Of a DNA stretch of 45,960 bases, positions 252 to 42,590 are shown piece after piece. A model generated the notes under the pieces. That model was not told the origin of the DNA and ran no database searches. It saw only the letters and a program-made list of their open reading frames with translations. Source of the stretch: a virus. The stretch lies in the IMG/VR virus record IMGVR_UViG_3300044712_000189, positions 1 to 45,960 of that record; one strand, written 5' to 3'. The position numbers and the translations under genes are program-made. Each line of letters starts with the position of its first letter. The first letter of the stretch is position 1.

Positions 252-296
252 CCTGTAGGGGTGGCGACTACTCCCCCTAGTTGTCACCCCTACAGG
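252..296 (+). terminator. Hairpin just after the stop codon (12-bp stem cctgtaggggtg/cacccctacagg)
   Basis: Perfect inverted repeat 252-263 / 285-296, 6 nt downstream of TAA 243-245. There is no clear U-tract. Confidence 0.55.
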
Positions 297-315
297 CCTA
301 ACGTTAGGATGGAAA

Positions 316-456
316 ATGGAGACACGTTGCGCCGACTGCGGAATGCTTGGTGAAATCACAGGACACATGGACTGTCAGTACCCCGGTGCTTACGCAGATA
401 TGATCGACTGGCAAGACCAACAGAATTACTACAGCAGGCCGTCCTATGGGGACTAA
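316..456 (+). CDS. Small Cys-containing hypothetical protein (46 aa)
   Basis: ORF below the track cutoff: METRCADCGMLGEITGHMDCQYPG... AGGA at 306-309 precedes ATG 316. The stop TAA 454-456 overlaps ATG 446 of the next gene. Confidence 0.4.
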   Translation: METRCADCGMLGEITGHMDCQYPGAYADMIDWQDQQNYYSRPSYGD

Positions 457-763
457 GCCTTTTGTGCCTTATGGTAGTAACCCTAAGCCAGCGCGTTATG
501 TCGCGCTCAAGATTAATCTCTCTGATCCCCTAGGAGGCGTAAAAGAAGAAGACCTGTTTAGGCCTGGTTCGCTGGCATTCTTCGATGGATATGCGGACGC
601 CCGCGAGTCAGGTGAATCGGGTCGCTTTATTCCTACTAACTACACGCTTGAGGATATTCGCCTTTACGATGCAGGCTTTAAGGCTGGGCTCAAAGTAAGA
701 GAACACATCAAGAGTCTATGGTTGGAGCCTATGAGTGCGGAAGCGCCGTCAGGTTCGGGTTAA
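446..763 (+). CDS. Hypothetical protein (105 aa)
   Basis: Track ORF. Its start overlaps the stop of the upstream small ORF, and it has the same orientation as the early block. Confidence 0.6.
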   Translation: MGTKPFVPYGSNPKPARYVALKINLSDPLGGVKEEDLFRPGSLAFFDGYADARESGESGRFIPTNYTLEDIRLYDAGFKAGLKVREHIKSLWLEPMSAEAPSGSG

Positions 764-944
764 TAATCCGAGCGAAACCCCGACGGGCTCTCCTGACTCA
801 ACTCAGCGTGTGAGTGGATATACGCCATTTATCTGTAAGCGTTGTAAGTGCAACGTTTACGGGCTAGTGATTCAGAATAGAAGCAAGATTCAGTATATCT
901 GCCCGGCATGTGATTTTGTCGAAACACTTGACGGAGACAGGTGA
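735..944 (+). CDS. Putative zinc-ribbon protein (69 aa)
   Basis: GTG 735 is preceded by GGAG (724-727). Two Cys pairs are present: CKRCKC and CPAC. The start is uncertain (alternative GTG at 810). Confidence 0.45.
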   Translation: MRKRRQVRVNNPSETPTGSPDSTQRVSGYTPFICKRCKCNVYGLVIQNRSKIQYICPACDFVETLDGDR

Positions 945-990
945 GTCCGATACACTTGCACTTGTCCATCTACCAGAAAGGTCAGTCACT

Positions 991-1707
991 ATGACTGAGA
1001 CTGCCTCGGCGCCTGCCGTCGTCCTTGACGACTTCGGTCAGCAGGCTAAGGATCGTCTTAAGGTCCTTATCGAGTCCCGCAACACTAAGGCCGGCACGAT
1101 TGCGGCTGCTAATGGCGATGCTCAGGGTCTGCTTGAGTCGCTGCGTAGTTCTAGTGACGACCCTAAGGTTGTTGCTCTGAACAAGAAGATTGAGGACCTT
1201 GCTGCTCAGGTTCTTAAGTTCGAGACTGAGCGCGACGAGGTTCTTAAGCCCATCGTCGAGTCGATTAAGTCGGATGCTGCCGCTAAGGTGGAGCCGCTTA
1301 CTGCTGAGGTTGACGAGCTCGATAAGCAGATCCGTGCTGCGAGCAACTACCTCAAGTCCATGTACGGTGCTGGTGCTGTTGAGGACCTGCCCGCTCTTGT
1401 GTCCCGTAAGGGCCGCGAGACTGGTGGCTCTAACGGTGGCCGTCGCGTTAAGGGCTTCGACGTGTACGTGGATGGAAAGATCGCCACGCTGCGCGACGCT
1501 AAGGGTGTGGAGCGTTCTAACCTCGCCGCCGCTGCTAAGGCGATCGGCGTTGACACCGCTACTATCCAGAAGGGTTTCTTCGACGCCCAGGGTACTACTG
1601 AGTCGAAGGACTACAAGAACGAGGTCGAGTTCGTTGTTAACCACGAGGACAAGGCGTACACCGTGCGCTGCGTTCGTGGTAAGGACGACGAGTCCGACTC
1701 CGAGTAA
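991..1707 (+). CDS. Hypothetical coiled-coil-rich protein (238 aa), strongly codon-biased
   Basis: Track ORF 910..1707 trimmed to ATG 991 (MTETASAP...), with gaaagg upstream. Codon use is uniformly CTT/AAG/GCT/GGT, typical of a highly expressed gene. The antisense ORF 982..1719 is a shadow. Confidence 0.75.
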   Translation: MTETASAPAVVLDDFGQQAKDRLKVLIESRNTKAGTIAAANGDAQGLLESLRSSSDDPKVVALNKKIEDLAAQVLKFETERDEVLKPIVESIKSDAAAKVEPLTAEVDELDKQIRAASNYLKSMYGAGAVEDLPALVSRKGRETGGSNGGRRVKGFDVYVDGKIATLRDAKGVERSNLAAAAKAIGVDTATIQKGFFDAQGTTESKDYKNEVEFVVNHEDKAYTVRCVRGKDDESDSE

Positions 1708-1755
1708 TATACGACCCACGAAGGCCGCGTGAGCCTTAGTGGGGAGGTCCTGAGC

Positions 1756-1866
1756 ATGACAATAAACTGCTCTCTTTCTACAGTTGTTGGCCTAGCACTA
1801 GGTAAGAGCGCGTGTATCCGAGAGTGTGCCGTGACACCCGCCGCCAACACCTTAAATCTTCTGTAG
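1756..1866 (+). CDS. Possible 36-aa ORF (MTINCSLSTVVGLALGKSAC...)
   Basis: GGGGAGG at 1741-1747 lies 8 nt upstream of ATG 1756. The stop TAG 1864-1866 sits inside a hairpin arm. The ORF is very short and has no other support. Confidence 0.25.
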   Translation: MTINCSLSTVVGLALGKSACIRECAVTPAANTLNLL

Positions 1867-2343: not shown

Positions 2344-2381
2344 GGCTCATCCAACGATGGGCCATATTGCCATGCCTTTTT
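2329..2381 (+). terminator. Long hairpin plus T5 tract that overlaps the promoter -10
   Basis: Arms aaggcatggtagtatggc (2329-2346) and gccatattgccatgcctt (2361-2378) pair with 2 mismatches. They are followed by ttttt (2377-2381). Confidence 0.5.
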
Positions 2382-2436
2382 GCTATTGCGGGCGGAAGTT
2401 ATGGGTGCTCCCTCGCTAATCCACCGGAGGTCAGTA

Positions 2437-4461
2437 ATGACTGAGCAGTACGAGCCGCTTAATGTCGAGGAACTTACGGATCTCGATAAGGTTGCGGAGG
2501 CTATGGCGCGACTTAACGCTATGGTCGCTAAGTTCGAGGAAACCCTTGCCCCCCTTGAGTCTCAGCAGTCTGAGGTTGAGGCCGATAAGCGTCGGCTTAA
2601 GTCCGAGTACGAAGTTAAGATGCTCGACCTTAACACTAAGTCTCGTGCTATCGAAGAGTTGATGTTTGACACTAAGCGTCAACTGCGTGGAATTAAGCGT
2701 GACGCCGAGTCGCTTACGCGCCAGTACCACGAACTTAACCGCGCTCAGTCGCTACAGCAGGAGTACCTTACCCTTGAGGCTAAGTGGGACTCGCTTACCA
2801 TTGGCGCCCCGTGGCGTGAGTGGGCTAAGGATCACCAGATTGAGGCCGCGCGTAAGATTACGTGGTCGCAGAAGATGATTCTCGGTGACACGATGGGCCT
2901 CGGTAAGACCCTCTCCGCTATCGCTGCCCTTGACATTATCCAGGCCGCGACTAAGGATGCCCGCCCCGATAACCCTTACGGTGGCGAGGACATTGAGCAG
3001 ACCGTCTATAACTACGAGACGGGTGAGTACGAGACGCACACCCGCAACGTCGGCGGCGTTACTAAGCCGTGTGGACTTAAGGTGCTCTACTTCTGCCCCG
3101 ACACTATGATCTACAACGTGCGTAAAGAAGTCCAGCGTTGGGCGCCTCACCGCAACGTTATCGAACTTGGCGGGCAGCCTAAGGCTACGCGCCGCTTCCT
3201 GCTTGATATGATGAAGGATTACCCCGACTACGTTGTGATCCTTAACTACGCTGCTTGGCGTCGTGACAAGACCCTCATTAGTGACCTGATCGACATTGAG
3301 TTTGACACGGTTATCATTGACGAGGCGCACAACGTCAAGGATCGTAAGTCCGTTGCTTACGGTGGAATTAAGCAGATCGTGGATCGTAGCGACGTTCCCT
3401 TTGTAGTGCCCATGACCGGCACGCCGATCCTTAACCGTCCGCAGGAGTTGTTCAGCCTGCTTACGTTCGTCGACCCTAAGCGGTTTAACCGTGAGGCGGA
3501 CTTCCTGTATGACTACTGCCGTCAGGACCCGGACACCGGGAAGTGGACGTTTAAGAATGGCGGCGTCGAGCGACTGTCTAAGGTTATTGGTAGCCGCTTC
3601 CTGCGCCGCACTAAGGAGCAGGCTGGAATTATTCTGCCGCCTAAGACTATCACTGAGCACATCCTTGAGATTGACCGCGAGAATTACCCGAACCAGGCTC
3701 GCGTTCGTGACGAGATGCGTAAGTGGGGCGCCATTATGCTTGACCCGGACAGCGGTAAGTCGCTGGCCGCTCAGGCTATGATTGCTGTCTACACGCGCCT
3801 GCGTCAGATTGAGGTTTGGCCTGCGGGTATCGAGGTTAAGGATCAGTTTGGCGACGTCTACCTTAAGGTTGAGGTCGAAGAGTCTCAGAAAATTGACTAC
3901 ATCATCCACGCTAACGGTGACGGCCCGGTGCCTACCCTTAAGGATGCCGGTGGTCTGCTGCCCGAGATTTGCGAGGACGAGCGCGTTGTAGTGTTCTCGC
4001 AGTTTAAGCCTCCACTGCGGGAACTTAAGCGCCGCTGTGACGAGGCTGGAATTAAGGCTGTCATTATGGATGGTGACACGCCTGACGACGTGCGCCGTGA
4101 GATTCAGAATGACTTTGACGCGCGCACTAAGAAGGAGAACCCCGGTTACGAGCACAAGTGGGACGTTGTGTTCTGTAACTACCGCGTGGGTGGTGTAGGC
4201 GTTAACTTCACCGACGCTACGCAGATGATTATTCTCGACGAGGAATGGAACCCTGGTAAGCGCGATCAGGCTTATGACCGCATTCACCGTATGGGTCAGG
4301 ACAAGCCCGTCACGATTCACGTTATCCGCGACAACGGTACTATCGACAACTGGCTGGAAAAGATTATTAGCGACAAGGAAGAAATGATTGACGGCTTCCA
4401 CTCCGTCGCTGATAACATGGCTCAGCAGATGTTTGACGCACTCAAGAACGGTCTGATCTAA
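2437..4461 (+). CDS. SNF2/RAD54-family helicase with an N-terminal coiled-coil region
   Basis: Track ORF 2380..4461 trimmed to ATG 2437, with GGAGG 7 nt upstream. Motif I is LGDTMGLGKT, motif II is IIDEAHNVK, and there is a C-terminal helicase domain (QAYDRIHRMGQ). Confidence 0.9.
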   Translation: MTEQYEPLNVEELTDLDKVAEAMARLNAMVAKFEETLAPLESQQSEVEADKRRLKSEYEVKMLDLNTKSRAIEELMFDTKRQLRGIKRDAESLTRQYHELNRAQSLQQEYLTLEAKWDSLTIGAPWREWAKDHQIEAARKITWSQKMILGDTMGLGKTLSAIAALDIIQAATKDARPDNPYGGEDIEQTVYNYETGEYETHTRNVGGVTKPCGLKVLYFCPDTMIYNVRKEVQRWAPHRNVIELGGQPKATRRFLLDMMKDYPDYVVILNYAAWRRDKTLISDLIDIEFDTVIIDEAHNVKDRKSVAYGGIKQIVDRSDVPFVVPMTGTPILNRPQELFSLLTFVDPKRFNREADFLYDYCRQDPDTGKWTFKNGGVERLSKVIGSRFLRRTKEQAGIILPPKTITEHILEIDRENYPNQARVRDEMRKWGAIMLDPDSGKSLAAQAMIAVYTRLRQIEVWPAGIEVKDQFGDVYLKVEVEESQKIDYIIHANGDGPVPTLKDAGGLLPEICEDERVVVFSQFKPPLRELKRRCDEAGIKAVIMDGDTPDDVRREIQNDFDARTKKENPGYEHKWDVVFCNYRVGGVGVNFTDATQMIILDEEWNPGKRDQAYDRIHRMGQDKPVTIHVIRDNGTIDNWLEKIISDKEEMIDGFHSVADNMAQQMFDALKNGLI

Positions 4462-4464
4462 TAC

Positions 4465-4490: not shown

Positions 4491-4516
4491 TCAACCCTCG
4501 GTATAGGAGCACTACA

Positions 4517-4861: not shown

Positions 4862-4902
4862 GTAGGGGTGGGGTTGTAATCTGCAGCCCCACCCCTACTT
4901 TT
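4862..4902 (+). terminator. Rho-independent-type terminator (12-bp stem gtaggggtgggg/ccccacccctac + tttt)
   Basis: Inverted repeat 4862-4873 / 4887-4898 followed by tttt 4899-4902, immediately after stop TGA 4853-4855. Confidence 0.7.
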
Positions 4903-5212: not shown

Positions 5213-5767
5213 GTGGCAGTCTGTCTTAAGTGTAGTCGGGGCCTTCACACTTCTTGTCGTGGGCCTTGTGATTGCAGCCATAATCTGGGACCTGTGGTTA
5301 TCACCGCAAGCCCGGAGGGACCGAGCGTTAATGAAGAGGAAGCCGACGACAACGACGACGAGCAACGTGGTCGTACTAGACGGACCAAGCCAGACCATGC
5401 GCTCAAAGATCAGCAATCAACAGGACGAAAGCGGGCCGCACGACTCTATCCTCTAGATAAGGAGGCGCTCTGTGAGTGGGCACTTAGACCCGAGCAGGGT
5501 GGCGGAATTGCTATCCCCGGTTGTGGATTACGTCCAGGAACGAAGCCAGGCAAGCAACAATCAAGGCATCATGGCCCAGACTACAATACTCTTAACAACG
5601 AAGCAGGAAACGTACACCGCATCTGTCACTCTTGTCACAACGCCTGGCACGCAGCCAACGATCCTAATAAGGATCAACGCTATCTAGAGTTGTATGGCGA
5701 TCGTGCTGGTGGGAGTAACTTTAAGAACAGTAAGGTTCTAAAGAGAGACGAAAATAACGAGGCTTGA
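5213..5767 (+). CDS. HNH endonuclease-like protein
   Basis: GTG 5213 follows GGAGGAG (5201-5207). The C-terminal motif is SRHHGPDYNTLNNEAGNVHRICHSCHNAWH (His-Asn-His with a CxxC). There is an N-terminal Cys cluster. An alternative frame, 5211..5456, also exists. Confidence 0.6.
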   Translation: MAVCLKCSRGLHTSCRGPCDCSHNLGPVVITASPEGPSVNEEEADDNDDEQRGRTRRTKPDHALKDQQSTGRKRAARLYPLDKEALCEWALRPEQGGGIAIPGCGLRPGTKPGKQQSRHHGPDYNTLNNEAGNVHRICHSCHNAWHAANDPNKDQRYLELYGDRAGGSNFKNSKVLKRDENNEA

Positions 5768-6309: not shown

Positions 6310-6616
6310 ATTAAACGGCAGCCGCAAAGGCGAGAGCATCGACGACTATCGCCTTCGTTACCTTCGCAGCATCCCGCTGGAAATTAGGCAGCAGATGTGT
6401 CAGTGCCAGCACAGCGTACAGTTGTGGCACAAGACACAGGCTACATCACCCAACGGGCTTGTCTTTAATTGGGAGGGTAAGGTTGCCGTACATTGGGACT
6501 GCAATAAGCCCATGCCTAATTGGACTTACATCGAGACTTGCTTTAACTGTGAGCAACTCTACATTATTAAAACGTTTCCCGATAAGATGATGCTTTGTGA
6601 AGATTGCGGTGGATAA
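6293..6616 (+). CDS. Cys-rich (zinc-finger-like) hypothetical protein
   Basis: Track ORF 6260..6616 trimmed to ATG 6293, which overlaps the stop of the upstream gene. Cys motifs are CQCQH, CFNC and CEDCGG. The start is uncertain. Confidence 0.55.
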   Translation: MFLPAELNGSRKGESIDDYRLRYLRSIPLEIRQQMCQCQHSVQLWHKTQATSPNGLVFNWEGKVAVHWDCNKPMPNWTYIETCFNCEQLYIIKTFPDKMMLCEDCGG

Positions 6617-8359: not shown

Positions 8360-8806
8360 ATGAGCGACGGCTTCCTTAATGACCTCGGGCTCGACACTGT
8401 TGAGGCTGACCCGAACCACATCGCTAACGGTAAGTACCCTGCCTTCGTTTACAACTCGGAGGTTCGCACTAAGAAGGACGGCACTAAGTCCTGGGTGATT
8501 ACCTACAAGATTGCTCCTGACTCGCCGCGTCACGCTGGTCAGCAGCAGCAGGAGTGGTTCGACCTTGAGCCTAAGGGCGAGAACGCTGATCTTAAGAAGT
8601 CCTTTCTTAAGCGCCGCGTGCTTAGCCTCGGTGTTCCTGAGACGCGCATCAACTCCGTTAACCCGGGCGATCTTATTGGCATCAAGGTGAGCCTTGAGAT
8701 TGTCCACCGCGGTCAGTACCAGAACGTCGGGACCGTTGAGGTTCTCGATGATAGCGGTAGTGTTGCCGCCCCGGTTGCTTCGGCAGCCAGCAGCACTCTG
8801 CTGTAG
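8360..8806 (+). CDS. Putative ssDNA-binding/annealing accessory protein (DUF669-like by position)
   Basis: Track ORF with aagga upstream. It follows the AAA_24-type ATPase, as in known phage recombination modules. Assigning it to a family is inference. Confidence 0.6.
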   Translation: MSDGFLNDLGLDTVEADPNHIANGKYPAFVYNSEVRTKKDGTKSWVITYKIAPDSPRHAGQQQQEWFDLEPKGENADLKKSFLKRRVLSLGVPETRINSVNPGDLIGIKVSLEIVHRGQYQNVGTVEVLDDSGSVAAPVASAASSTLL

Positions 8807-8812
8807 TTAGAC

Positions 8813-8879
8813 CGGTCCCCCTGTAGTGCGCTAAATACTGTTTCGCGGCAGTATTACGCGGGGAAGGCTACAGGGGGAC
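8813..8879 (+). terminator. Long compound hairpin (13-bp outer stem ggtccccctgtag/ctacagggggacc)
   Basis: Outer arms are 8813-8825 / 8867-8879, with an inner stem aatactg/cagtatt. It lies between stop TAG 8804-8806 and the tRNA at 8885. Confidence 0.5.
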
Positions 8880-8884
8880 CGTAA

Positions 8885-9665: not shown

Positions 9666-9735
9666 CCCTGCCTGTAGTTATGTGGACTTAACTCCCTGAG
9701 TCGCTAAGTCCCCCACCCATATACTACAGGCAGGG
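9666..9735 (+). terminator. Long hairpin (13-bp outer stem ccctgcctgtagt/actacaggcaggg)
   Basis: Arms are 9666-9678 / 9723-9735, with an inner stem ggactta/taagtcc. It lies between stop TGA 9658-9660 and the tRNA at 9740. Confidence 0.5.
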
Positions 9736-9739
9736 CTAG

Positions 9740-9841: not shown

Positions 9842-11578
9842 ATGTTGGAATTGCACGCCCTCAACCCAAGCAACGACATTAACACATTCCTCGACTTCTT
9901 ATACACCGACGCTGACGAGGGTTATATTTACACGCCTACTAAGGACGCAGAGTCGGGTGAGTTTCGTCAGGACTTCTTTAAGTGGCCTGAGGAACGCTCT
10001 AAGTTAGTCGAGTGGATTATTGATACTACAGACCGCTCGGAGGTCTATATTGCACCCGCACTCTTTAGCCAGCCGTCGGCTCAGAAAGAGGCGTTTAAGT
10101 CCACCAACGTGCTCTGGACCGAATTCGACGGTAACTATCCAGCGTCATTCGGTGATGTGCCAAGCCCGTCGCTGGTGGTACAGTCCTCTGACGCAACCCA
10201 CGCTCACGTTTATTGGCGGCTCACTGAGCCAATGCGAAACTTCCAAGACGTCGAGGCTTATAACCGGACCATCACTTATAATCTTGGAGCCGATGCAAGC
10301 GCCTGGGACTGCAACCAGGTACTTCGCCCTCCGGCTACCCGGAACCATAAGCGAGACACGGTTACGACAGTTAGTAAGGCATTCACGGAAGCACCGCTGC
10401 CCCTCTCCCTTTTCGTTCCTACTTACGCCGTACCCGTCGTATCGGAGTTTGATACTAGCGTCATTCCTGACGTCACGGATATCATCTACAAGTATGAATT
10501 CCCTCTCGTCGTTAGCAGTCTGTTAAGGACTAAGGATCTCCCTGTAGGCGAGCGTTCTACTGCACTCATGAAGTTGGGGTTCTACCTCGCTGAAATGGGC
10601 ATGAGTGACGCTGAGATTTACAGTGTGATCCGTAACGCTGACGATCGGTGGGGTAAGTTTAAGGACCGTACTGACCGAGAGCGAAGGCTGCTTGATCTAA
10701 TCTCGCGTGTACGTGAGAAGTATCCGTCTACTGATTACCAGACCGATATTATTCCGGTCTTTGGTTTCCAGTCGTTCCTAGAGCACGACATTCAGATCGA
10801 ATGGATTATCGACGGTCTGCTACAGGAACGCGGATACATGCTGCTTACCGGACCTAGTGCTGTCGGTAAGACGCAGTTTACGTTGCGTATGGCTCTCAAC
10901 ATGGCCCTTGGTCGTGGTGAGTATCTAGGTGAGAAGTTTACTCGGCCTGCTAAGATTCTGTTCTTCTCTCTGGAAATGGGTCACGCTGACCTCAAGTATT
11001 TCGCTGAGATTATGGGGCGAGACTTTACGTCAGACGAAATTCGGATGCTAGAGCAGAACTTGATTGTTGTTCCCCACGGTGAAGCGATCTACTTTAACCA
11101 AGAGGAAGGCAAGCAGCAGATTCTTGACATTATCGGGGCTGTCAACCCTGATGGTGTAATTGTAGACTCTCTCGGTTCTACCACAAGTGGTGGTCTGAGC
11201 AACGAAGATATCGTCAAGTCTATCATGGACTTTAACGATCGTATTCGTAAGCAATACAGTATCTTCACATGGTTCATTCACCACATGCGTAAGGCTTCCG
11301 GTGACAACAAGAAGCCGAACAAACTTGACGATGTGTACGGTAACCAGTATATCGTTAACCGTGCTACTACGGTCTTGTGTTTGTGGCCCAACCACAACAA
11401 GATCGACGTCATTCCCCTTAAGATTCGACTCGGCCCGAAGAGGGAAACCTGGACGATCCAACGTATCGGCAACATCGACTTTGAGCGTGCGTCTAGTGTC
11501 ACGTTCATAACGTCTGATCCTACAGAGCCTTACAATCCTGGCGACTCAAAGCCGGGCCTCGCATTCGGAGATATCTAA
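9842..11578 (+). CDS. Bifunctional primase-polymerase / RepA-DnaB-like helicase
   Basis: AAGGAGG lies upstream of ATG 9842. The N-terminal half has AEP/prim-pol-like motifs (LWTEFDG, SSDATHAHVYWRL). The C-terminal half has Walker A LLTGPSAVGKT and a RecA-type ATPase core. Confidence 0.85.
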   Translation: MLELHALNPSNDINTFLDFLYTDADEGYIYTPTKDAESGEFRQDFFKWPEERSKLVEWIIDTTDRSEVYIAPALFSQPSAQKEAFKSTNVLWTEFDGNYPASFGDVPSPSLVVQSSDATHAHVYWRLTEPMRNFQDVEAYNRTITYNLGADASAWDCNQVLRPPATRNHKRDTVTTVSKAFTEAPLPLSLFVPTYAVPVVSEFDTSVIPDVTDIIYKYEFPLVVSSLLRTKDLPVGERSTALMKLGFYLAEMGMSDAEIYSVIRNADDRWGKFKDRTDRERRLLDLISRVREKYPSTDYQTDIIPVFGFQSFLEHDIQIEWIIDGLLQERGYMLLTGPSAVGKTQFTLRMALNMALGRGEYLGEKFTRPAKILFFSLEMGHADLKYFAEIMGRDFTSDEIRMLEQNLIVVPHGEAIYFNQEEGKQQILDIIGAVNPDGVIVDSLGSTTSGGLSNEDIVKSIMDFNDRIRKQYSIFTWFIHHMRKASGDNKKPNKLDDVYGNQYIVNRATTVLCLWPNHNKIDVIPLKIRLGPKRETWTIQRIGNIDFERASSVTFITSDPTEPYNPGDSKPGLAFGDI

Positions 11579-13287
11579 TGGACCTAACCGATGTTAAGCA
11601 GCATGTTATCGCTATGGAACAGGCCGACCTTATTGCTGTGGATACCGAAACAACGGGTATCGACGGCATTAAGACCGGCCGGGACTATGCGATTGGCGTG
11701 TCTGTGGCGTATCGGTTAGGTCCATTAGGCGTTTTTAGCGCCTATTTTCCGCTGCGTCACGACGTCGAAAGTTTACCGCTCAGCCCTACAGTTGACCTAC
11801 TTGCCCCGGTGTTACGGGACAAGCCGCTAGTGTTCCACAACAGGAAGTTTGACCTGTTCAGCCTTAAGACGCTGGGCATCACGGACTTCCGTAAGATTCA
11901 CTACGACACCGCTATCGAAATGGGTATCGTCAACGAAGAATGGCCTACCCGTAAGTTGGACTTCCTCGGTAAGATGGTTCTTAACCGTGGTAAGGATAGC
12001 GAGAAGATCGACGCTTGGACTAAGATGTACGGCTGGGGTACTCACGTTCCCCCGCATGTTATGTCGGACTACGCTAAGGTCGACGCTGAGGTTACGCTTG
12101 AGTCCCACGAGGTTCTGTGGAAGCGTATGATTAAGGAAGATACCGCTCAACTGTGGCCTAGCGAGTATGAGTTTAACAACCTGCTCTACGAAATGGAATC
12201 GCGCGGTGTAGGAATTAACAAGCGATTCTGCGAAGAGAAGTTAGAGACGGGTCTTAAGCGCATGGCAGAGTTAGAGTCTGTCCTGTCGTTCAGCCCGAGT
12301 AAGTCAGGCGAGTTGTCTGACTTCTTCTTTAACGAACTTAAGATGCCCGTGCTTAAGGAGACGCCTGCTGGTAAGCCGTCGCTCGACAAGCACGTTATGG
12401 AAGAGTATGACGAGTTACTTGCTGCGTCTGACAACCCTGTAGCGAAGTTGGTACTTGAGTACCGGGGCTGGCAGAAGGCTACGTCAAGCCTTTACAAGCC
12501 GATGCTGGAATTAGAGGTTGACGGACTCGTCCACTGCAACTTTAATCAGGGCAAGACTAAGACTGGACGCCTTAGTTGCGACAGTCCTAACCTACAACAG
12601 ATTCCTCGTAAGAGCGAAAAGGAGTGGAACGGCGATGCACGCAAGGCGTTCGATGCTAATGACCCGGACTACGACCTTATCGGCTACGACTACTCGCAGT
12701 TGGAGTTGCGTCTCGCAACTGCGTATGGTCAAGAACAGCGTCTTATCGAAGAGTTTCTTAAGGATGATGCAGACCCGTTTACCGCGTACATGGACGTGAT
12801 CGGCTGCACTCGTCAAGAGACTAAGACGTTCTTCTACAGCAACATCTATGGCGCTGGTACGGCTAAGATTGCTTACACCTTAGGACGTGATCTGGATGAT
12901 GTGCGACCACTCCACACAAAGTTTCTTAACTCAATCCCCGGAATTACATTCGCTTCTAAAAGGGCTGGACAACTCGCCGCTGATCGAAAGTACGTACGTT
13001 ATTGGACCGGGCGCCGACGCCACTTCCCCTACGGGGAAGGTAGTTACCGTGCTTTTAACTCTATCCTCCAAGGTGGAGCAGCCGAGTTAGTTAAGCACGC
13101 GATGCTGCGTATGCGTGAGATTGAGAACGACGATATTCAGATGGTGCTACAGGTGCATGATGAGATTGTGTTCCGTGTGCGCCGCGGTACTCTCGATAAG
13201 TACGACGCTCGCATTCGTGAGATTATGACGGACTTCCCTCAGTTTGGAGTGAGGTTTGCTGTAGAGAGCAAGGTGTGGAATGCTTAA
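11578..13287 (+). CDS. Family A DNA polymerase with a 3'-5' exonuclease domain
   Basis: ExoI motif is AVDTETTGI. Pol motif B is RQETKTFFYSNIYGAG and motif C is LQVHDEIVF. The start overlaps the upstream stop codon (TAATG). Confidence 0.95.
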   Translation: MDLTDVKQHVIAMEQADLIAVDTETTGIDGIKTGRDYAIGVSVAYRLGPLGVFSAYFPLRHDVESLPLSPTVDLLAPVLRDKPLVFHNRKFDLFSLKTLGITDFRKIHYDTAIEMGIVNEEWPTRKLDFLGKMVLNRGKDSEKIDAWTKMYGWGTHVPPHVMSDYAKVDAEVTLESHEVLWKRMIKEDTAQLWPSEYEFNNLLYEMESRGVGINKRFCEEKLETGLKRMAELESVLSFSPSKSGELSDFFFNELKMPVLKETPAGKPSLDKHVMEEYDELLAASDNPVAKLVLEYRGWQKATSSLYKPMLELEVDGLVHCNFNQGKTKTGRLSCDSPNLQQIPRKSEKEWNGDARKAFDANDPDYDLIGYDYSQLELRLATAYGQEQRLIEEFLKDDADPFTAYMDVIGCTRQETKTFFYSNIYGAGTAKIAYTLGRDLDDVRPLHTKFLNSIPGITFASKRAGQLAADRKYVRYWTGRRRHFPYGEGSYRAFNSILQGGAAELVKHAMLRMREIENDDIQMVLQVHDEIVFRVRRGTLDKYDARIREIMTDFPQFGVRFAVESKVWNA

Positions 13288-36338: not shown

Positions 36339-36627
36339 TTAAGATCCCTTCCGTAGATGCGATCTGGGCATCCTTAGCAACGATATCTGCTTCTAATTGC
36401 AGGATGCGCGCACGCATCGTGTGGTACGGAGCCTCAGGGAACACCGTGGTTAACTCAAACGCACAACTACAGCAGAAGTAAACAACGCCGTAAAACTCGT
36501 AGTCTAACTTCGTGTCTACAAAGCCGTCTTCGTTGTAAGTTGAGCCGCAAACTGCACAGGCAGCAGGAAGCGCCATTTCACCAGCGGGTACGCGAGCAAA
36601 ACGGCCCGAGGGGTCGTAACCGGCCAT
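36109..36627 (-). CDS. Zinc-ribbon protein with an acidic C-terminal tail (172 aa)
   Basis: Its start overlaps the TerL stop codon (TAATG). Cys motifs are CAVCG ... CCSC, followed by a helical segment and a D/E-rich tail. Confidence 0.7.
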   Translation of the reverse strand: MAGYDPSGRFARVPAGEMALPAACAVCGSTYNEDGFVDTKLDYEFYGVVYFCCSCAFELTTVFPEAPYHTMRARILQLEADIVAKDAQIASTEGILNGLMAERLIDRGVTIIGDTVIGAELPAESDADEVPDVDAQGPGESDSEPDESVTDEGPVHVTDAERDDVDPILSDL

Positions 36628-38204
36628 TAGTATTCTCCACCTAAAAATTCATCGTAGACCCACTGTGTACCTAACGAGGCATACTCCTTGTTAGGTCGAT
36701 CAGAGCGTCCGAACGGGTCTGCGACTTCATCCTCGTACGCTGCCATAGATAAGCCTAGCCCCTCAGGCATGGCTGACTCAACCGAATCCTTACTGCCTAA
36801 GCGCGCGTGGTACTCAGACGTTAATTCCGGTCGAGACATAATTGCGTAGCGTAAGGAGTCGGCAGCGTGGTCGTCCTTCTTATGGGGCTGGTCGAAAGCG
36901 TTGTTTTGCGACTGCTGCTTCTTAGAAGCGTAAGTCTTCCAACGGTAACGACGTAATTCCTTAATCAGGTTATAACAGTTAGGAGTAACGTGCCACATAG
37001 CCTGACCGTTCTTACGCGGCTCCATATACTTGGCTACACGCACGATACCCGCAGCAACATCGTTGTTTGCTAACGCAAAGGGTAGTCCGTACTTAGCGTA
37101 CTCTTCGTGGATGCTTGTTCCGGTGATTGGATCGGTATTTCGAATAGAGGGATCTGCGATGAAGATGTCAGGTCCACGACCAAGTTGCTTGTTGATTCGA
37201 TGAATCTCTCGGGCGTGCTTGTCAACAGTCCACCCCTGTTGATAGTGCTCCCTAAACGTAATAACTGATCCTTCTGGATCGACCCCATGCCATAGGGCTG
37301 CAGTAGGGTTGTTAAATCCGTGGTCGAGCGAGAGAATCCAAACCCAGTCCTTCGGAATCTCCGGGTTATCCTTAAGCACATGCAAGCCCCCCGGCTGCGG
37401 GTCAAAGTGCTTATAAATTAGACCACCGAGTTGGATGAACTTACCGTGGATACGGGCGTCCTTCTCTTCCTCAGTTAATCCAGAGATGAACTCCTGGACC
37501 TCAAGGTCTCCCAGGTGAGGGTTGTCTGTCATATCTACCTCAATGACAGCAATGGAGTCATTTGCACCACTTACACCAGGCTCGTAAACTTGATCGTAAA
37601 TCCACGTCATACCGTCAACAGGCGTCATGGTAAACCAGTGGCTACCACCCGTGTCAATAAGACGCGCCTTGTTCTCAGTATAGATTACCTCAGGAGGCTC
37701 CTCGTCAAAGTGAATAAAGTGTCGACTAGTACCCGCAAACTTGTCGAGGTCCTGGTCGTACGACATAAACTCTACAAAGGAGCCGTTAGCGAAAGTTAAC
37801 GTCCTGAGGGTTTTGTCATAACTATCTTCCCATGATCCATTAATAAGGTAACTTGGCGCGCACCATCGGGCAAACTCTGGAAGGATAATCTTCGCAAGAC
37901 CATTGGTAAAGTCGACTGTGACGATACGCCCACGAATCGGACCCTCAGGAATTGCACGGTAAGGGTGGTTCCCGCGGAGCCAGTAAATATCTTCGAGGAT
38001 TCCGCCCGTAGTCTTGCCCGATCGGTTACCACCAATGTAGAGGCGGATACGGGCACTAGAACTATGGAACTTGATTTGCTTGTCATGAGGAATGTATCCA
38101 TGCACGTTAGGGCGGTTACTACTCGCCTTGAGTTTCTCCCCAAGCAGCCTAAAGACTGCCTGGGGAGAGTCTAACTCCGCAGCCTTCTTCGGCCTACCAG
38201 CCAT
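36627..38204 (-). CDS. terL: Terminase large subunit
   Basis: Walker A is YIGGNRSGKTTG and Walker B is HFIHFDEEP. A C-terminal RNaseH-like nuclease region contains ILSLDHGFNNP and KKDDHAADSLRYA. Confidence 0.93.
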   Translation of the reverse strand: MAGRPKKAAELDSPQAVFRLLGEKLKASSNRPNVHGYIPHDKQIKFHSSSARIRLYIGGNRSGKTTGGILEDIYWLRGNHPYRAIPEGPIRGRIVTVDFTNGLAKIILPEFARWCAPSYLINGSWEDSYDKTLRTLTFANGSFVEFMSYDQDLDKFAGTSRHFIHFDEEPPEVIYTENKARLIDTGGSHWFTMTPVDGMTWIYDQVYEPGVSGANDSIAVIEVDMTDNPHLGDLEVQEFISGLTEEEKDARIHGKFIQLGGLIYKHFDPQPGGLHVLKDNPEIPKDWVWILSLDHGFNNPTAALWHGVDPEGSVITFREHYQQGWTVDKHAREIHRINKQLGRGPDIFIADPSIRNTDPITGTSIHEEYAKYGLPFALANNDVAAGIVRVAKYMEPRKNGQAMWHVTPNCYNLIKELRRYRWKTYASKKQQSQNNAFDQPHKKDDHAADSLRYAIMSRPELTSEYHARLGSKDSVESAMPEGLGLSMAAYEDEVADPFGRSDRPNKEYASLGTQWVYDEFLGGEY

Positions 38205-39115
38205 TACTCATAGATCCTATACGTGATGCGTAACTGCGGTTCGCCGGACTCACCGTTACCAGCGAAGTAACCATAATACTCAGTAGCATTGCTGTTAGCC
38301 CAGAGGGCAATGCCCTTCTTAGTGCCCCCCGCCTGCCAGTCTGCTAAAGTACCCCGCACACCAGCAGATAGGGCACACCACTTAGCACCTGTTTTAGTAG
38401 TCCAAGACGTATCCGAGTTACTACTAAGGCTAGTAATGCCAGACCACGTAGAGGGTGCTGTAGTGTTGTTACACGTTCGAATACGTGCTGTACCGCCGGA
38501 GTCAGGACCCCAGTGTAGAGCGTTAAGATACACTTCGACGTTAGTAATATCATACGCACCTGCTAAGTCGGTCTGAATGATAGTGCTAAATCGAATAAAA
38601 CACTTCTGCTGGTCATGAACACTAGACACGTAGCCTTGGTAGATATGAGCGTCGTCATTACGCTGAGTACCGTCGCCGTTGTATGATTGCGTGCTAGTGC
38701 AAGCATACGTAAGAGTGTACGTGTTGAGAACCTTAGCAGCAACGGTAATTGTACCCGACGTAGACGCACTAAATCCGCCAAAACCACTGAATGCAGCATA
38801 AAATGTAGATGATCCAGTAATCTGAGCAGTAGTGTACGACCATGCGCCAGTAGATGGGTTAACAGCTACAGCAACCCCGTATCCAACTCCGTTACGGTAC
38901 ACCTGAACAGTACCGCCACCAGGGTTAGGACTAACGACACCGCTCACCGTAAAGTTGGTACTAGGTTGAGCGCGATAGGTACTAGATGCAATACTCGTAG
39001 TTGTAGCCGAAGCACCTGCAGCGATAACTGCGCCGCTAGGGACGATAGCATCAGGCCGCCACTTGGATCCATCCCACCACTTAAGATTGACACCTAACTG
39101 CCCAATGCTAGTCAT
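38204..39115 (-). CDS. Fibre-associated / carbohydrate-binding-like structural protein (303 aa)
   Basis: The N-terminal half is Ig-like and Thr/Ser/Gly-rich. The C-terminal beta-sandwich-like region ends EPQLRITYRIYE. It is translationally coupled to both neighbours (TAATG overlaps). Confidence 0.7.
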   Translation of the reverse strand: MTSIGQLGVNLKWWDGSKWRPDAIVPSGAVIAAGASATTTSIASSTYRAQPSTNFTVSGVVSPNPGGGTVQVYRNGVGYGVAVAVNPSTGAWSYTTAQITGSSTFYAAFSGFGGFSASTSGTITVAAKVLNTYTLTYACTSTQSYNGDGTQRNDDAHIYQGYVSSVHDQQKCFIRFSTIIQTDLAGAYDITNVEVYLNALHWGPDSGGTARIRTCNNTTAPSTWSGITSLSSNSDTSWTTKTGAKWCALSAGVRGTLADWQAGGTKKGIALWANSNATEYYGYFAGNGESGEPQLRITYRIYE

Positions 39116-40584
39116 TACACCACCCCTAGGGTCATAGTACGAAGATCGCCGTAAGGTACGAAACGACCAATAAACCTAATAAAATTAACGTAAATTCCTG
39201 AACCGCCACCAGCACCGGAAGTTGCGTAGCCCATATGCTTAAACTCTACAGAACCGCCACCAACACCGACGTTATATACCTGTAAGACATACTTACCTAA
39301 AACGATCTCGTCCTTTTCAGACGCCTCGCTCCACGTACGTGCTTGGTTCATATCGACACCGCCCCAGAAACCATACGGAGTAAGGTTACTGTAAGACTTC
39401 ACTGCAGGCTTGTACGCGATAAGTTTGTTAGCTACGTTACCAGTGTGTAGCATACAAGAGTAATCCATAAAGAACATACCCCTACAGGGGAAGTCAATGC
39501 GTACTGTCTCTAATGCAATGTCAACCCATGTACCGTTAACTGTAAAAGCAGTTGCCGAGTTGTTTCCATATAGTACGTGAAACTCTTCGTACTCATCGGT
39601 AGATGTATCCCACCACAGTTGTCCTTGTGCTGGATTAGAGGGCGCACTAGGTCCAACGTATAATGGGACTGTATAGCCCCAATCCGCCTGACCACTAGCG
39701 TCACTGACGAGCACTTTGCCGACGCCTTGGTTACCCGTAGGCAGGAACAGGTTTGTGATGTTGGCCGTGTCCGCGTTCACCTGTGTCGTGTCCAGAGCGG
39801 CCGCAGAGACGGCTCCTTCGACCGTCAGCGGCCCCTCCATGCGCTGCGGAGAAGTGACGCCAACGTACAACTTAGACACCGTAGTTAAGTTAGAAACTAA
39901 CTGCACATCATCGTGGTAGCAGTTAAGTGGGAAGCCTGCTGCAACCGTGTCGTCGTCCCAAACAATCACAAGGCGACCACGTAAAGCAGTAGGGGGCACT
40001 AACCAGCTAAACGCCCACACCTGATCTGCGTTCACTGCAGTAATAGATCGCTGACCGATGAACTCTAAAGTTGTACCAGCATCGGGAGTAAGAGCAGTGT
40101 CTACAGAAGGATCAGTAGTGTCCGCTCGCCATGCAACGTAGACCCTGAGCCGGGTACTTAAGGTGTCACCACGGTAAGTGATGTTGCCCGCCATATCCTC
40201 ATTGGCTACAGGAGTAAAGACGTTGCTTTGCCAAACTACTTCTGAGGTGTCAACTGATAACTGACTGAGGAAGTCTCCCGCTGAGACGGAGCCTGACCCG
40301 TTGATTGTGGAGATAGTCCAGTTAGTAATACCGCTAGAAGCGTCGCCATTGAGAATGAGATTGTCACCAGCAATCTCGGGGTGAGTGTGCTGTTGGAACG
40401 CGTAGGTGTCATCGAAAACCTGCTTTGCTAACGGAAGGGACGTTGCCTGATCCGGGCCGTTACCAATAGTGTGGTGGTGTGCCTCCGGCCCACTATCCAC
40501 GTCGTCGTAAAGGTGATCTTGACGTGACTTAGTAGCCCCACCGTCAACGGTGAAGCCCTCTAACGGACTGAAACCCTCGGTCAT
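39115..40584 (-). CDS. Tail fibre / minor tail protein (489 aa)
   Basis: The N-terminal motif DDVDSGPEAHHHTIGNGPDQA matches the D-x-D...HHHT[LI]G-x-G-x-x-QA signature I recall from actinophage minor tail proteins. The start overlaps the upstream stop codon (ATGA). Confidence 0.75.
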   Translation of the reverse strand: MTEGFSPLEGFTVDGGATKSRQDHLYDDVDSGPEAHHHTIGNGPDQATSLPLAKQVFDDTYAFQQHTHPEIAGDNLILNGDASSGITNWTISTINGSGSVSAGDFLSQLSVDTSEVVWQSNVFTPVANEDMAGNITYRGDTLSTRLRVYVAWRADTTDPSVDTALTPDAGTTLEFIGQRSITAVNADQVWAFSWLVPPTALRGRLVIVWDDDTVAAGFPLNCYHDDVQLVSNLTTVSKLYVGVTSPQRMEGPLTVEGAVSAAALDTTQVNADTANITNLFLPTGNQGVGKVLVSDASGQADWGYTVPLYVGPSAPSNPAQGQLWWDTSTDEYEEFHVLYGNNSATAFTVNGTWVDIALETVRIDFPCRGMFFMDYSCMLHTGNVANKLIAYKPAVKSYSNLTPYGFWGGVDMNQARTWSEASEKDEIVLGKYVLQVYNVGVGGGSVEFKHMGYATSGAGGGSGIYVNFIRFIGRFVPYGDLRTMTLGVV

Positions 40585-41399
40585 AAGTCGTCCACCACTA
40601 CCTCGTTCTTAACTGGCTCGGGTGCCGAGGTAATAACATGCACCTGCTTCTGAACCACCTGATTAGTAGGGCCGCTAGGCAGTGCGCCGGGTTCCGCTAA
40701 CTTCATCAGGTCCGTAGCAATAACGGATTGTAATTCAGGGTTCTGAACGCGCTGCTGAATAATCTCAAGCACGCGCATAACGATCATCATAGCGTCCATC
40801 GCGTTACCGCCCTGCGATGCAGGAACGTAGCGACCCGTAAGTTCGTTGTAATACTTAATGGCGCCCATATCACCGGAGCGCACTCGGTCAATAAGTGCAA
40901 GGTGCGCCTCATGTTGGTTATCGCCGAGGGCGTTCTCAGCACGCGCACGAATGTAATTCTGGAACCCCGGATCACGTAACCAGGACTGGTACGTCTGCGT
41001 GGGGATGCCTAAATCTGCTAACTTCTTCTTAGCCGATCGGGTGTCCGTAAGGTCAAGGAGTACGTTTGCTACAGTAAGTTGTTGCTCACTGAGCATGTAA
41101 CGCTTCCACTCAGCGTGCGTACCGCGACCGATGATCTCTAAGCCACGCAGCGAGATACCGCGCTCCCTACAGGCCGCCCGAAAGTTAGCACTCTTAAAGA
41201 AGTCGTAGTAGTGGTCAGGGACGCCCATTTCCTTAGCGCGCTCGCTAGTGGGAATCAGGCCAAACTCAAACCAGTATTGCTCTAGGAAGTTAAGGAACTC
41301 GTCTTGCTCGTCGGTAATTTCTGCAGCGTTAAACAACGCCTCGTCGTCCTCAAGGAACGGGTTGGCGTTAGGGTTCGGGAGCACTGGCCGATCAGCCAT
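40581..41399 (-). CDS. Terminase small subunit-like HTH protein
   Basis: Track ORF trimmed to ATG 41399 (TAATG overlap; GGAGGG 9 nt upstream). The segment LSEQQLTVANVLLDLTDTRSAKKKLADLGIPTQTYQSWLRDPGF is HTH-like, as in TerS proteins. This is inference. Confidence 0.55.
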   Translation of the reverse strand: MADRPVLPNPNANPFLEDDEALFNAAEITDEQDEFLNFLEQYWFEFGLIPTSERAKEMGVPDHYYDFFKSANFRAACRERGISLRGLEIIGRGTHAEWKRYMLSEQQLTVANVLLDLTDTRSAKKKLADLGIPTQTYQSWLRDPGFQNYIRARAENALGDNQHEAHLALIDRVRSGDMGAIKYYNELTGRYVPASQGGNAMDAMMIVMRVLEIIQQRVQNPELQSVIATDLMKLAEPGALPSGPTNQVVQKQVHVITSAPEPVKNEVVVDDL

Positions 41400-41908
41400 T
41401 AACGCGCCCTCCACTCTGCATAACTAAGCATGAAGTCGGTAATCAGCCGAGGCTCGTAGCCGGAGTCCTTAAGAGCGTCAAGTAAGATTTCCGGGGGAAT
41501 CGCGGGGTGATTCGGTCCCATCACAAACTTGTGCAGAATAGGTAGGTGAAGGCACAATGCCACGCAGACTTGAGTAAGGTTCGTAGCTTTACTGCTGTTG
41601 ATCCACGCTTGTAAGGGGTGAATGGGTCCAGACTCAAACTCGTAATCGGGGTCAAGGATTCCGTAGTTACTTTGGCGCTTGCTTACCTGGTAAGCGTGGT
41701 AATCTTCCACGAACGCTTCCCACGGTAAGCCGTCAGGTAAGAAGGGCATAAACTTAGGTGATGGATCGGGAATGCAGCCCTGCTCAAAGCGTAATAACGC
41801 CATGCGGCTCATTCCCACCTTATACGCGAACGTAGCCTGCACGGTGTCCCCGCGTAAATCACGCACGGGGCTAGACTCAATCGGCAACGTCGCCTTAGTC
41901 GGCGGCAT
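41399..41908 (-). CDS. XRE-like HTH protein, first gene of the minus-strand operon
   Basis: The HTH segment is TVQATFAYKVGMSRMALLRFEQG. The start is set at ATG 41908, which has no SD and may be leaderless. GTG 41953 is an alternative start. Confidence 0.6.
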   Translation of the reverse strand: MPPTKATLPIESSPVRDLRGDTVQATFAYKVGMSRMALLRFEQGCIPDPSPKFMPFLPDGLPWEAFVEDYHAYQVSKRQSNYGILDPDYEFESGPIHPLQAWINSSKATNLTQVCVALCLHLPILHKFVMGPNHPAIPPEILLDALKDSGYEPRLITDFMLSYAEWRAR

Positions 41909-41915
41909 GGGTATA

Positions 41916-41944
41916 ATGGTATCAGGCGTGCTTAGGGGGCACAA
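41916..41944 (-). promoter_or_regulatory. Candidate promoter TTGTGC-17-TACCAT placed for a near-leaderless ATG 41908
   Basis: On the minus strand: -35-like (plus-strand coordinates 41939-41944), 17-nt spacer, TAnnnT hexamer (41916-41921) ending 7 nt before the ATG. The match is weak. Confidence 0.25.
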
Positions 41945-41962
41945 GCCTTTCACTAAGGGGGG

Positions 41963-41995
41963 AGGTATACTACGTAATTATCTCGTAGGTATACT
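41963..41995. repeat. Two copies of AGGTATACT (core palindrome GTATAC) 24 bp apart
   Basis: Copies at 41963-41971 and 41987-41995, just upstream of the first minus-strand gene. Confidence 0.6.
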
Positions 41996-42590
41996 AAGTA
42001 AGTGTTGCCGTAATAGGAACGGGTCCCCCGCTACGCTGCTGTCTGTGGCTCGCTTTACCGTGACGACATACTTCCAGCGTGGTGGTGTGTAACCCTCGCT
42101 ACGCTCGGGAAGCGTGTCTTAATAACGGGGCATGTGACACACACATGCACTGCTTACTGCCTGCGGCAGTAAGGCTGTCGCCCTTGCATGTATACCTAAG
42201 GTAGTTGGCTGGAACTAGTGCTAGTACCAGCACAGTAATTAAACCTAACGCCGGCATTCCCGCATCTACCTTTAATGAAGGGGCCAGCCCCTTCACCCCG
42301 CTTAGGGAGAGGCTACGCCTCCCCTAAGAACCCCTCCCCTTACTCACTTCCGTACTTCTCCAGGCTCCAGCAGGTCTCGAACACTTACCCGATAACCACT
42401 CAGTCGTTCCTCCTTCGTGCTTATCGAATAAGCGTTCGATCCATGCTCCAGTCGCCTTCCAATCTCTCTCTCGGTCTATGCCCCTGTATCCTAAGTCGTT
42501 CCGCGTTGCAGTAAAGTCTCTTCACTTACGCTTCCCTACAGGACGGTGCTCCCGCACCAAGCGACTGGACTTACGCTTAATTGCCGAGAC

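Follow-up and report, generated by a model that had tools for sequence, protein, structure and literature searches.

The usual view is that a primase needs only two or three template letters; sites this short turn up often by chance, so priming should leave no mark on genome composition. Known primase sites include 5′-(G/T)(G/T)GTC-3′ for gp4 of phage T7, GTG for ORF904 of pRN1, and ssiA and ssiB for RepB′ of plasmid RSF1010. Here we describe a hexamer, 5′-CTGTAG-3′ (CTACAG on the opposite strand), in the viral genome IMGVR_UViG_3300044712_000189, the whole of which (45,960 nt) was analysed and is referred to below as the window, together with a primase-helicase encoded by the same genome (9842..11578, plus strand) as the candidate reader of this word. 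The unit is the hexamer itself, with a weak preference for C ahead, and it is kept by selection at ~2 sites per kb, genome-wide, on both strands and whatever the genes encode. A word family CTGT-N-G, in which N is A, G or C, marks a clade of actinophage-like podovirus genomes that includes the cultured Arthrobacter phages Jasmine and Adat. The reading towards which we lean, if only slightly, is that CTGT-N-G sites are lagging-strand priming sites of the phage's own primase-helicase.

Several other kinds of short dispersed sequences are known. Chi sites, recognized by RecBCD or AddAB, are set by the host enzyme, common to the host genome and skewed with replication. The DNA uptake sequences (DUS) and uptake signal sequences (USS) of Neisseria and Pasteurellaceae are 9–12-mers of competent bacteria, read by the uptake machinery. 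Stoperators of cluster A mycobacteriophages are repressor sites of 13–14 bp, present in a few dozen copies per genome and oriented with transcription, in temperate phages. The nick sites of phages T5, phiKMV and tf/LUZ24 are at least 9 nt long, occur in 5–14 copies on one strand only, and have conserved positions (PMC3517423).

An exact count gave 103 copies of CTGTAG/CTACAG in the window, compared to 22.3 expected from base composition; a preliminary description of this sequence had put the numbers at about 95 and 22 for the core of a longer motif. Bases 1–127 are exactly duplicated at 45834..45960 (terminal redundancy or circular-assembly overlap), so one copy is counted twice, and the unique genome (1..45833; 45,833 bp) carries 102 copies, 39 on the plus and 63 on the minus strand. 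This corresponds to ~1 copy per 450 bp, with sites in all frames, on both strands and in intergenic DNA too. The earlier proposal that the excess goes beyond codon preference was borne out by synonymous-codon shuffling with protein sequence and codon usage fixed (103 observed vs 38–41; z about 15). Because the genome shows strong codon-junction biases, a junction-preserving null, in which the codon shuffle also keeps all dinucleotides, was applied. The junction NNT followed by AAN (off-frame TAA) occurs 655 times compared to 444 expected, a bias mirrored on the antisense strand, and off-frame TGA is depleted in the window genes. Under the junction-preserving null 53–65 copies of the word are expected (z 8–10), and CTGTAG is the sole outstanding hexamer (z 9.5, with the next at 5.4). 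The junction bias produces an apparent excess of the palindromes CTTAAG and GTTAAC, both unremarkable under this null. A general off-frame stop or TA-junction bias was rejected as the cause of the word: the bias is real, yet it leaves CTGTAG unexplained.

With respect to genes (first gene model), 42 copies of the hexamer are sense, 41 antisense and 20 intergenic. The excess is seen in each frame of both strands (e.g. 36 vs 7.6 expected in sense frame 1, 13 vs 2.2 in antisense frame 0 and 18 vs 5.2 in antisense frame 1), and strictly intergenic DNA (3.3 kb) contains 11 copies compared to 1.6 expected, a ~7-fold enrichment. Synonymous opportunities to form the word are used in 80 of 346 cases (23%). 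Information at the 102 sites is limited to the six letters, bar a weak c-t-S upstream, with little in the flanks. Within 36000–45833 of the window there is a local skew in absolute strand (~14 minus vs 1 plus copies), over genes of either orientation; upstream of the terminase gene, relatives lean to the same side, though less strongly (172 vs 114). The skew at 36000–45833 might result from the direction of the fork near a genome end or origin.

No nucleotide-level match to the window genome was found among deposited phages. Its large terminase (TerL) shows 44% identity to that of Arthrobacter phage Jasmine and its relatives, and the distribution of the word was examined in a TerL-anchored set of 80 loci from IMG/VR. 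CTGTAG was found at 3–5 times expectation in many of these relatives, ranking 1–4 of 2,080 hexamers in 14 of them and first in the close relatives L106–L108. TerL relatives L056, L061 and L079, represented by loci without the replication module, lack the word, and replication-arm loci confirm the enrichment on that arm, including in a relative of 61% GC. CTGTAG is not in excess in the complete genomes of Jasmine and Adat; there the one-letter variant CTGTGG is enriched, with 101 copies observed vs 38 expected (z 15) in Jasmine and 90 vs 33 (z 14) in Adat. Its anatomy is that seen in the window: both orientations, all frames and the whole genome are occupied, with strand counts of 58/43 (Jasmine) and 49/41 (Adat) and no switch along the genome. 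The published description of Jasmine mentions no motif (PMC5513430), and no relevant description of CTGTAG in phages was found in the literature searched.

A host Chi-type site was among the possibilities raised in the preliminary description, and the word does resemble Chi in being short, over-represented, apparently read strand-specifically and subject to site turnover, as a density-type signal. However, CTGTGG is not enriched in BarretLemon, CapnMurica, Galaxy or PrincessTrina, four unrelated phages of Jasmine's host strain (the host genome was not included in this comparison). The word therefore follows the phage lineage and not the host, and it also differs from Chi in having no clear skew; a host Chi site was rejected on the basis of these same-strain controls.

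The conservation of motif positions in related phages, a question likewise raised earlier, was found to depend on distance. In close relatives found via the primase, 21 of 35 sites are conserved vs 9.1 expected (p 2e-5), and further close-relative alignments gave 7 of 12 vs 2.1 (p 0.002) and 10 of 25 vs 5.8 (p 0.05), the expectation in each case being derived from frame-matched hexamers in the same alignments. Conservation is thus 2–3 times that of matched hexamers in close relatives and falls to background at larger distance: in a relative with ~77% amino-acid identity, positions are mostly unshared, with 2 shared sites among 21 window and 33 relative sites. Conserved above controls yet turning over, the sites are selected but replaceable. 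Fixed regulatory sites were rejected on account of the poor positional conservation at ~77% identity. At one position aligned between the window and L106, CTACAG stands against CTGTAG, so that two substitutions have flipped the orientation with the site still in place.

The spacing of the word per strand is more even than random in Jasmine and Adat (coefficient of variation 0.62–0.71; P between <0.001 and 0.014). In Jasmine, with coefficients of 0.62 and 0.70 (P≤0.009), the largest gaps, too, are shorter than expected at random (P about 0.01). The combined Stouffer Z was −3.8 over 32 CTGTAG strand-sets and −5.5 over six CTGTGG strand-sets. Evenness is usually greater per strand than with the strands pooled, and this per-strand regularity points to a reader that sees one strand.

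This observation bears on the idea that the words are duplex binding sites for a phage protein involved in genome organisation or in global control of transcription or replication. Such a role would agree with the use of both orientations and with the enrichment of intergenic DNA, and two candidate proteins are available: a winged helix-turn-helix protein (44775–45458) and a small protein (5213–5767). Of the non-structural proteins, the latter is the one best conserved between the window and Jasmine (52% over 91 aa), and most word-bearing loci contain a homologue of it. However, a spacing more regular per strand than pooled is not predicted for an orientation-blind reader, the word is non-palindromic with very little flank information, and L148, a relative without the word, has a homologue of the small protein too. 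Duplex sites are therefore considered an unlikely explanation.

A number of short words are avoided to an extreme degree throughout the window genome. Compared to the expectations of the codon-shuffle and junction-preserving nulls, respectively, AGCT was observed 23 times (176 and 122 expected), TTSAA 0 times (63 and 41), CTGAAG 0 times (33 and 25), CTGGAG 3 times (28 and 20) and GAGGAG 3 times (29 and 25). Further avoided words, with a single expectation each, are AGTACT (0 vs 15), AGTACA/TGTACT (0 vs 18), GAGATC (5 vs 29), ACCAGA (4 vs 22), ACTGGG (5 vs 20) and GAACTC (7 vs 22). Several of them are sites of known restriction enzymes (AluI, AgsI, Eco57I/AcuI, BpmI/GsuI, BseRI, ScaI, TatI-like, BmrI), and the set as a whole suggests that many restriction systems have left their mark. 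Relatives differ in the words they avoid: CTGCAG is absent in many of them but normal in the window, and AGCT is avoided in only some. Jasmine and Adat avoid CTGAAG (2 observed, 38 expected) and GAAGAC (2 observed, 31 expected).

Since two of the avoided words are single-letter neighbours of CTGTAG, and the sum over CTGNAG is as expected (129 observed vs 122 expected), it was tested whether the excess is a passive by-product, arising from restriction-site avoidance (neighbours CTGAAG, CTGGAG and CTGCAG), codon-pair bias or context-dependent mutation bias. The extreme avoidance of CTGAAG and CTGGAG, the conserved CTGNAG total and the junction bias, which explains CTTAAG and GTTAAC and lifts the CTGTAG null from 41 to 53–65, all speak for it. 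Nevertheless, with all 11 avoided words forbidden the null reaches only 46–56 vs the 103 observed: codon moves under this constraint raise it only to 46, and the strictest version, junction-preserving with the 11 words forbidden, gives 55.6 (sd 3.9; z 12). The largest excess lies in the frames without a synonymous route from CTGRAG to CTGTAG; the relatives L026 and L010 have a CTGTAG excess without CTGRAG avoidance; and in Jasmine, where CTGAAG is avoided as well, the word is CTGTGG, which does not fit CTGNAG. Sites are moreover conserved above matched hexamers, and no depleted neighbours were found beyond the restriction-type CTGRAG words, so no mutational donor word is apparent. Restriction avoidance was therefore rejected as the source of the word, and a passive by-product of any of these kinds is regarded as highly improbable.

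The general idea of the preliminary description, that a short word is read by a DNA-processing enzyme, still stands, but the best candidate for this enzyme, the primase, was absent from it. The primase-helicase of the window is collinear with Jasmine gp38, and at least 533 homologues of this primase were counted. Its N-terminal half (~9842–10798) comprises a RepB′-like archaeo-eukaryotic primase (AEP) catalytic domain together with a helix bundle, and its C-terminal half, with a Pfam AAA_25 match, is a RepA/DnaB-like helicase. Residues 11–181 match the PHROG family "DNA primase" (E 5e-19). A sequence search of solved structures returned weak helicase matches only. The AlphaFold2 model of the N-terminal half (pLDDT 87) was compared with known structures using Foldseek, and the best matches were RepB′ 3h20 (full-length RSF1010 primase; E 7e-10), the AEP domain of cyanophage S-2L PrimPol (6zp9) and the RepB′-DNA complex 3h25. 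RepB′ is a site-specific primase whose catalytic domain binds the first six single-stranded nucleotides of ssiA, beside a hairpin (PMC8567376). Sequence-specific priming is also reported for other AEP primases with helix bundles.

Association between the word and this domain was examined in 80 PolA-anchored loci representing the wider clade, with a word called where CTGTNG reached z≥5. The relatives were retrieved with alignment-built queries; a single primase or PolA protein used as query found none. Nearly all PolA-anchored loci have one dominant hexamer belonging to a single CTGT-core family: CTGTCG, CTGTAG and CTGTGG, or shifted forms such as TGTGGC, TGTCGG, GTAGCG and TGTAAG. Where the RepB′-like domain is present, CTGTNG reaches z≥5 in 43 of 61 loci and is among the top three hexamers in 42 of 61; where the domain is absent, the word occurs in none of six (Mann-Whitney p 6e-6, Fisher p 0.001). 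CTGTCG (18), CTGTAG (17) and CTGTGG (10) were found as word types, and CTGTTG never. Sites occur at a median of 2.2 per kb on both strands together, i.e. ~1 per 0.9 kb per strand. In the primase tree, CTGTGG genomes form one clade and CTGTAG genomes the other. Some loci have dominant words outside CTGTNG: CATTAG, with 42 and 23 copies in L012 and L087 (two pieces of one IMG/VR contig), TGTAGG in L110 and TGTAAG in L159, while L037 has a GAATG-containing family (CATTCG, 44 observed vs 20 expected).

Two genomes illustrate the exchange of the domain. In L175 and L148 the gene beside PolA is still a primase-helicase, and its helicase half aligns with that of the window (24% identity, E 1e-7). The N-terminal domain, however, is Pfam Prim-Pol PF09250, and no CTGT-type word is present. 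Both genomes keep PolA, the PD-(D/E)XK nuclease, AAA_24 and, as determined by tblastn, SNF2. High GC content was rejected as the reason for the absence of the word in L175 and L148, since word-bearing relatives of 60–64% GC exist.

These replication genes offer an alternative reader. The word may be a phage-encoded, Chi-like "self" mark, recognized on a DNA strand by a helicase-nuclease (SNF2 plus the Cas4-like protein) or an AAA_24 recombinase system, which would attenuate degradation or load recombination proteins. This would suit a density-type signal on both strands, regular on each strand, and a set of phage nuclease, helicase, recombinase and resolvase shared with Jasmine; in addition, a high-GC host would rarely contain a word that includes TAG. 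Against it, L148, L175 and L144 all keep the PD-(D/E)XK nuclease and SNF2, two of them also AAA_24, and all are without the word. Jasmine and Adat have defined genome ends, and the word shows no switch of orientation with respect to them; nor do we know of a precedent in which SNF2 or such Cas4-type phage nucleases read a sequence. A mark of this type thus seems improbable.

Priming by the phage primase-helicase would account for the word as follows. The enzyme would read CTGT-N-G on single-stranded DNA, and the sites would act as primer-initiation signals for discontinuous synthesis, with the family A polymerase and the single-strand DNA-binding protein completing the replisome. By chance, each strand would offer a six-letter site only ~once in 4 kb; through synonymous and intergenic positions, selection may have raised this to ~once per 0.7–1.2 kb per strand, and specificity at position 5 may have drifted between lineages. 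Initiation at the word is inferred; that the word is real, selected, specific to the lineage and associated with the primase domain is what the analysis shows. Extended to the clade, the proposal is that the RepB′-like primase-helicase of ~45-kb actinobacterial podovirus-type genomes, including Jasmine and Adat, starts primers only at CTGT-N-G, that these genomes have been reshaped to ~1 site per kb per strand, and that the primase and the fifth letter (A, G or C, never T) have evolved together. To this wider statement we would give an even chance of being correct.

The comparison with known primases shows both agreement and divergence. As in the T7-type replisome, the primase is phage-encoded, fused to a helicase and placed beside a family A polymerase. 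Like primase sites, the word is non-palindromic and present on both strands; in the relatives, though not in the window, it is spaced more evenly than random per strand, at approximately the size of Okazaki fragments. T7 Okazaki fragments range from 1 to 6 kb, with 177 pentanucleotide sites on lagging-strand regions (PMC12839067), and the density of the phage word (~1 site per 0.9 kb per strand) is near the lower end of that range. T7-type sites, however, have only 3–5 nt, and no clear excess could be calculated from the 177 sites. RepB′, to which the phage primase half is structurally closest according to the model, binds six single-stranded nucleotides specifically; unlike the phage word, a bare hexamer that is apparently needed, it uses only two 40-nt, hairpin-including sites in a leading-strand mode. 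The phage system differs further in that the whole genome has been reshaped to supply the word and that the fifth letter differs by lineage. On the best-supported reading, a hexamer dominating genome composition and its lineage-specific fifth letter are what is new relative to known primase sites.

Several observations weigh against priming. The association is not phylogenetically independent, being based on two domain-swap genomes and one without a primase beside PolA; these three genomes are distant (PolA 29–36% identical), and unknown small genes could co-vary with the primase domain. The CTGTNG signal is weak (z<4) in 16 of the 61 primase-positive loci, some of which have shifted or different words (TGTAGG, CATTAG, TGTAAG). 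The window itself shows no regularity of spacing (coefficient of variation about 1), and its overall strand asymmetry, 39/63, is mild. When opportunity is taken into account, sense sites are used more often than antisense ones (31% vs 18%, p 0.006), which priming alone does not predict. Finally, the two ssi sites at which RepB′ primes are complex and include a hairpin, the plasmid is replicated in leading-strand mode only, and RepB′ is not known to use a bare hexamer.

The word might also be the target of phage DNA modification or nicking, comparable to the nicks of T5, phiKMV and tf/LUZ24 or to partial base hypermodification. The tf and LUZ24 group, distant TerL relatives with the same architecture (~45 kb podovirus genomes, two convergent arms and terminal repeats), is nicked at 5′-TACT/RTGMC-3′, a lineage-specific consensus in which one purine (G/A) varies (PMC3517423), and many window genes have no known function. 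The phage word nevertheless has neither the length, the copy number, the confinement to one strand nor the fixed positions of nick sites: the known sites are 9-mers in 8–14 copies, on one strand and at conserved positions, and the word is a 6-mer in ~100 copies, on both strands and with turnover. No extension of CTGTAG is confined to one strand. The tf/LUZ24-type consensus occurs at chance level in the window and was rejected, and no methyltransferase, glycosylase-type or other base-modifying enzyme was found among the ~45 window proteins scanned. A modification or nicking target is very unlikely.

The preliminary description had considered as the unit not the hexamer but an octamer, CTGTAGGG, with 15 copies between 253 and 42541. 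All 15 were confirmed in position and strand; ten lie within or overlap coding sequence, and five are strictly intergenic. The octamer is ~9-fold over-represented relative to a naive null (dinucleotide shuffles gave a mean of 1.64 and a maximum of 6), close to the 10-fold claimed; C precedes 11 of the 15 copies (CCTGTAGGG was counted 11 times), and six of nine coding copies are read as GTA-GGG, again as reported. However, Markov models that know the shorter words already expect 7.0 (order 5) to 9.6 (order 6) copies, so the octamer could not be maintained as the unit. It is the subset of sites with GG after them, several of which lie in terminator hairpins. The dinucleotides favoured 3′ of the hexamer are CG (16), GG (15) and TG (12), with TG (24) favoured on the 5′ side, and sibling octamers are at least as common (TGCTGTAG, 24 copies; CTGTAGCG, 16 copies). 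An octamer-specific role was therefore rejected, since several 3′ extensions are favoured and GG is just one of them.

Under an order-1 model the octamer is equalled or surpassed by others, among them TGCTGTAG (24 copies) and ATCTGGAA (17 copies). ATCTGGAA and TCTGGAAC were rejected as rival words because they are explained by a single 900-aa protein (27821–30523, minus strand; no Pfam family match) with ~24 tandem 14-residue repeats (...Q(L/A)IWNxRxxVGxxx..., 42-nt period). These repeats give rise to the over-represented octamers ATCTGGAA, TCTGGAAC and ATTTGGAA, and synonymous-codon shuffling showed that the count of ATCTGGAA is accounted for by the protein sequence.

Co-orientation of the octamer with transcription had suggested a stoperator-like, pause or termination signal. 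It is literally true of the 15 copies, of which 13 are oriented with the local genes, and several intergenic copies lie in gene-end hairpins, one of them a clear terminator. An asymmetric word dispersed in many copies over an actinophage genome is also reminiscent of stoperators. Orientation is nevertheless no property of the word, since the hexamer, from which the octamer follows, is strand-symmetric to genes. Once coding opportunity is allowed for, the octamer shows a marginal bias (8 of 37 sense and 1 of 32 antisense, Fisher p=0.03), and the siblings differ, CTGTAGCG leaning antisense (9 of 50 antisense opportunities vs 4 of 30 sense). In contrast to stoperators, the word is of 6 bp, occurs in ~100 copies and in all frames, is not oriented with transcription, and has positions that turn over and are not conserved at moderate distance. 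The genome is lytic-looking, and no integrase or repressor family was found among the window proteins scanned, though a missing Pfam match is no proof of absence. A transcriptional signal carried by the octamer is thus extremely improbable. A packaging signal, also proposed, found no support: nothing ties the sites to packaging, and their distribution is genome-wide.

Among the five octamer copies in strictly intergenic DNA, four (253, 288, 2072 and 4860) are within or beside gene-end hairpins, and the fifth (42534) is in a divergent region before the gene at 42546. The hairpin at 252..297 (plus strand; 19-bp stem, −38.5 kcal/mol, z −7.0) has arms CTGTAGGGG and CCCCTACAG that correspond to octamer copies 253 and 288, the latter having been correctly identified as a complementary arm. 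At 4862..4898 (plus strand) there is an intrinsic terminator with a 17-bp stem and a U tract (z −6.9), whose 5′ arm overlaps copy 4860. Two other gene-end hairpins on the plus strand each contain two copies of the word: GGTCCCCCTGTAG...CTACAGGGGGACC at 8813..8881 (copies 8821+ and 8868−; z −3.9) and CCCTGCCTGTAG...CTACAGGCAGGG at 9666..9736 (copies 9672+ and 9724−; z −5.9). Another strong hairpin (43407–43446; −40.5 kcal/mol, z −6.7), located just past the gene at 42546–43397, has CTACAG in its loop and not in the stem. Inverted pairs serving as gene-end terminator hairpins are also a feature of DUS, and the word resembles DUS/USS further in its ~1–2 copies per kb, both orientations and synonymous positions in genes. 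It differs in being a 6-mer and in residing in lytic-looking phage genomes.

The window genome (~45 kb) is organized in two convergent gene arms, like those of its podovirus relatives, and contains terminase, portal, capsid and lysis genes. The end junction is spanned by a gene of the YspA/SLOG family (45464 to 245; 204 aa); Jasmine instead has a 1,330-bp direct terminal repeat, on which an Lsr2-like gene lies. The few non-structural genes common to the window and Jasmine encode the SNF2 helicase, the small protein of unknown function, the Cas4-like nuclease, the AAA_24 ATPase, the primase-helicase, PolA, a resolvase and WhiB. The SNF2-family helicase (2380..4461), the PD-(D/E)XK (Cas4-like) nuclease (6604–7503) and the AAA_24 ATPase (7500–8354), all on the plus strand, are those kept in relatives without the word. 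The probable single-strand DNA-binding protein, a replisome component, is encoded at 8360..8806 (plus strand; PHROG 378, E 1e-4), and the family A DNA polymerase with 3′-5′ exonuclease at 11578..13287 (plus strand), adjoining the primase-helicase. The replication arm of close relatives contains Pfam matches to anti-CBASS proteins, namely the Acb2/Tad1 hairpin and Acb5 (weak), in small genes of L108 (9399–9626) and L112 (1148–1351); no Acb2/Tad1 or Acb5-type match was seen in the window.

A lesson for the scanning of genomes is that an octamer seemingly oriented with transcription can turn out to be one form of a shorter word without gene-strand bias. For the phages concerned, one hexamer gives the strongest compositional signal of dozens of genomes; purifying selection acts on it, and it is gone where one primase domain is exchanged for another. 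If the link between the two is causal, the specificity of a primase could be read from sequence alone. If priming at CTGT-N-G is true, the A, G or C at position 5 would provide a natural specificity series for template recognition by RepB′-type AEP primases, and synonymous engineering of such phages would be limited, as recoding could remove priming sites. Since Jasmine and its host, Arthrobacter sp. ATCC 21022, are in culture, the hypothesis is directly testable, and priming specificity would, if it holds, be a previously unrecognised force on phage genome composition.

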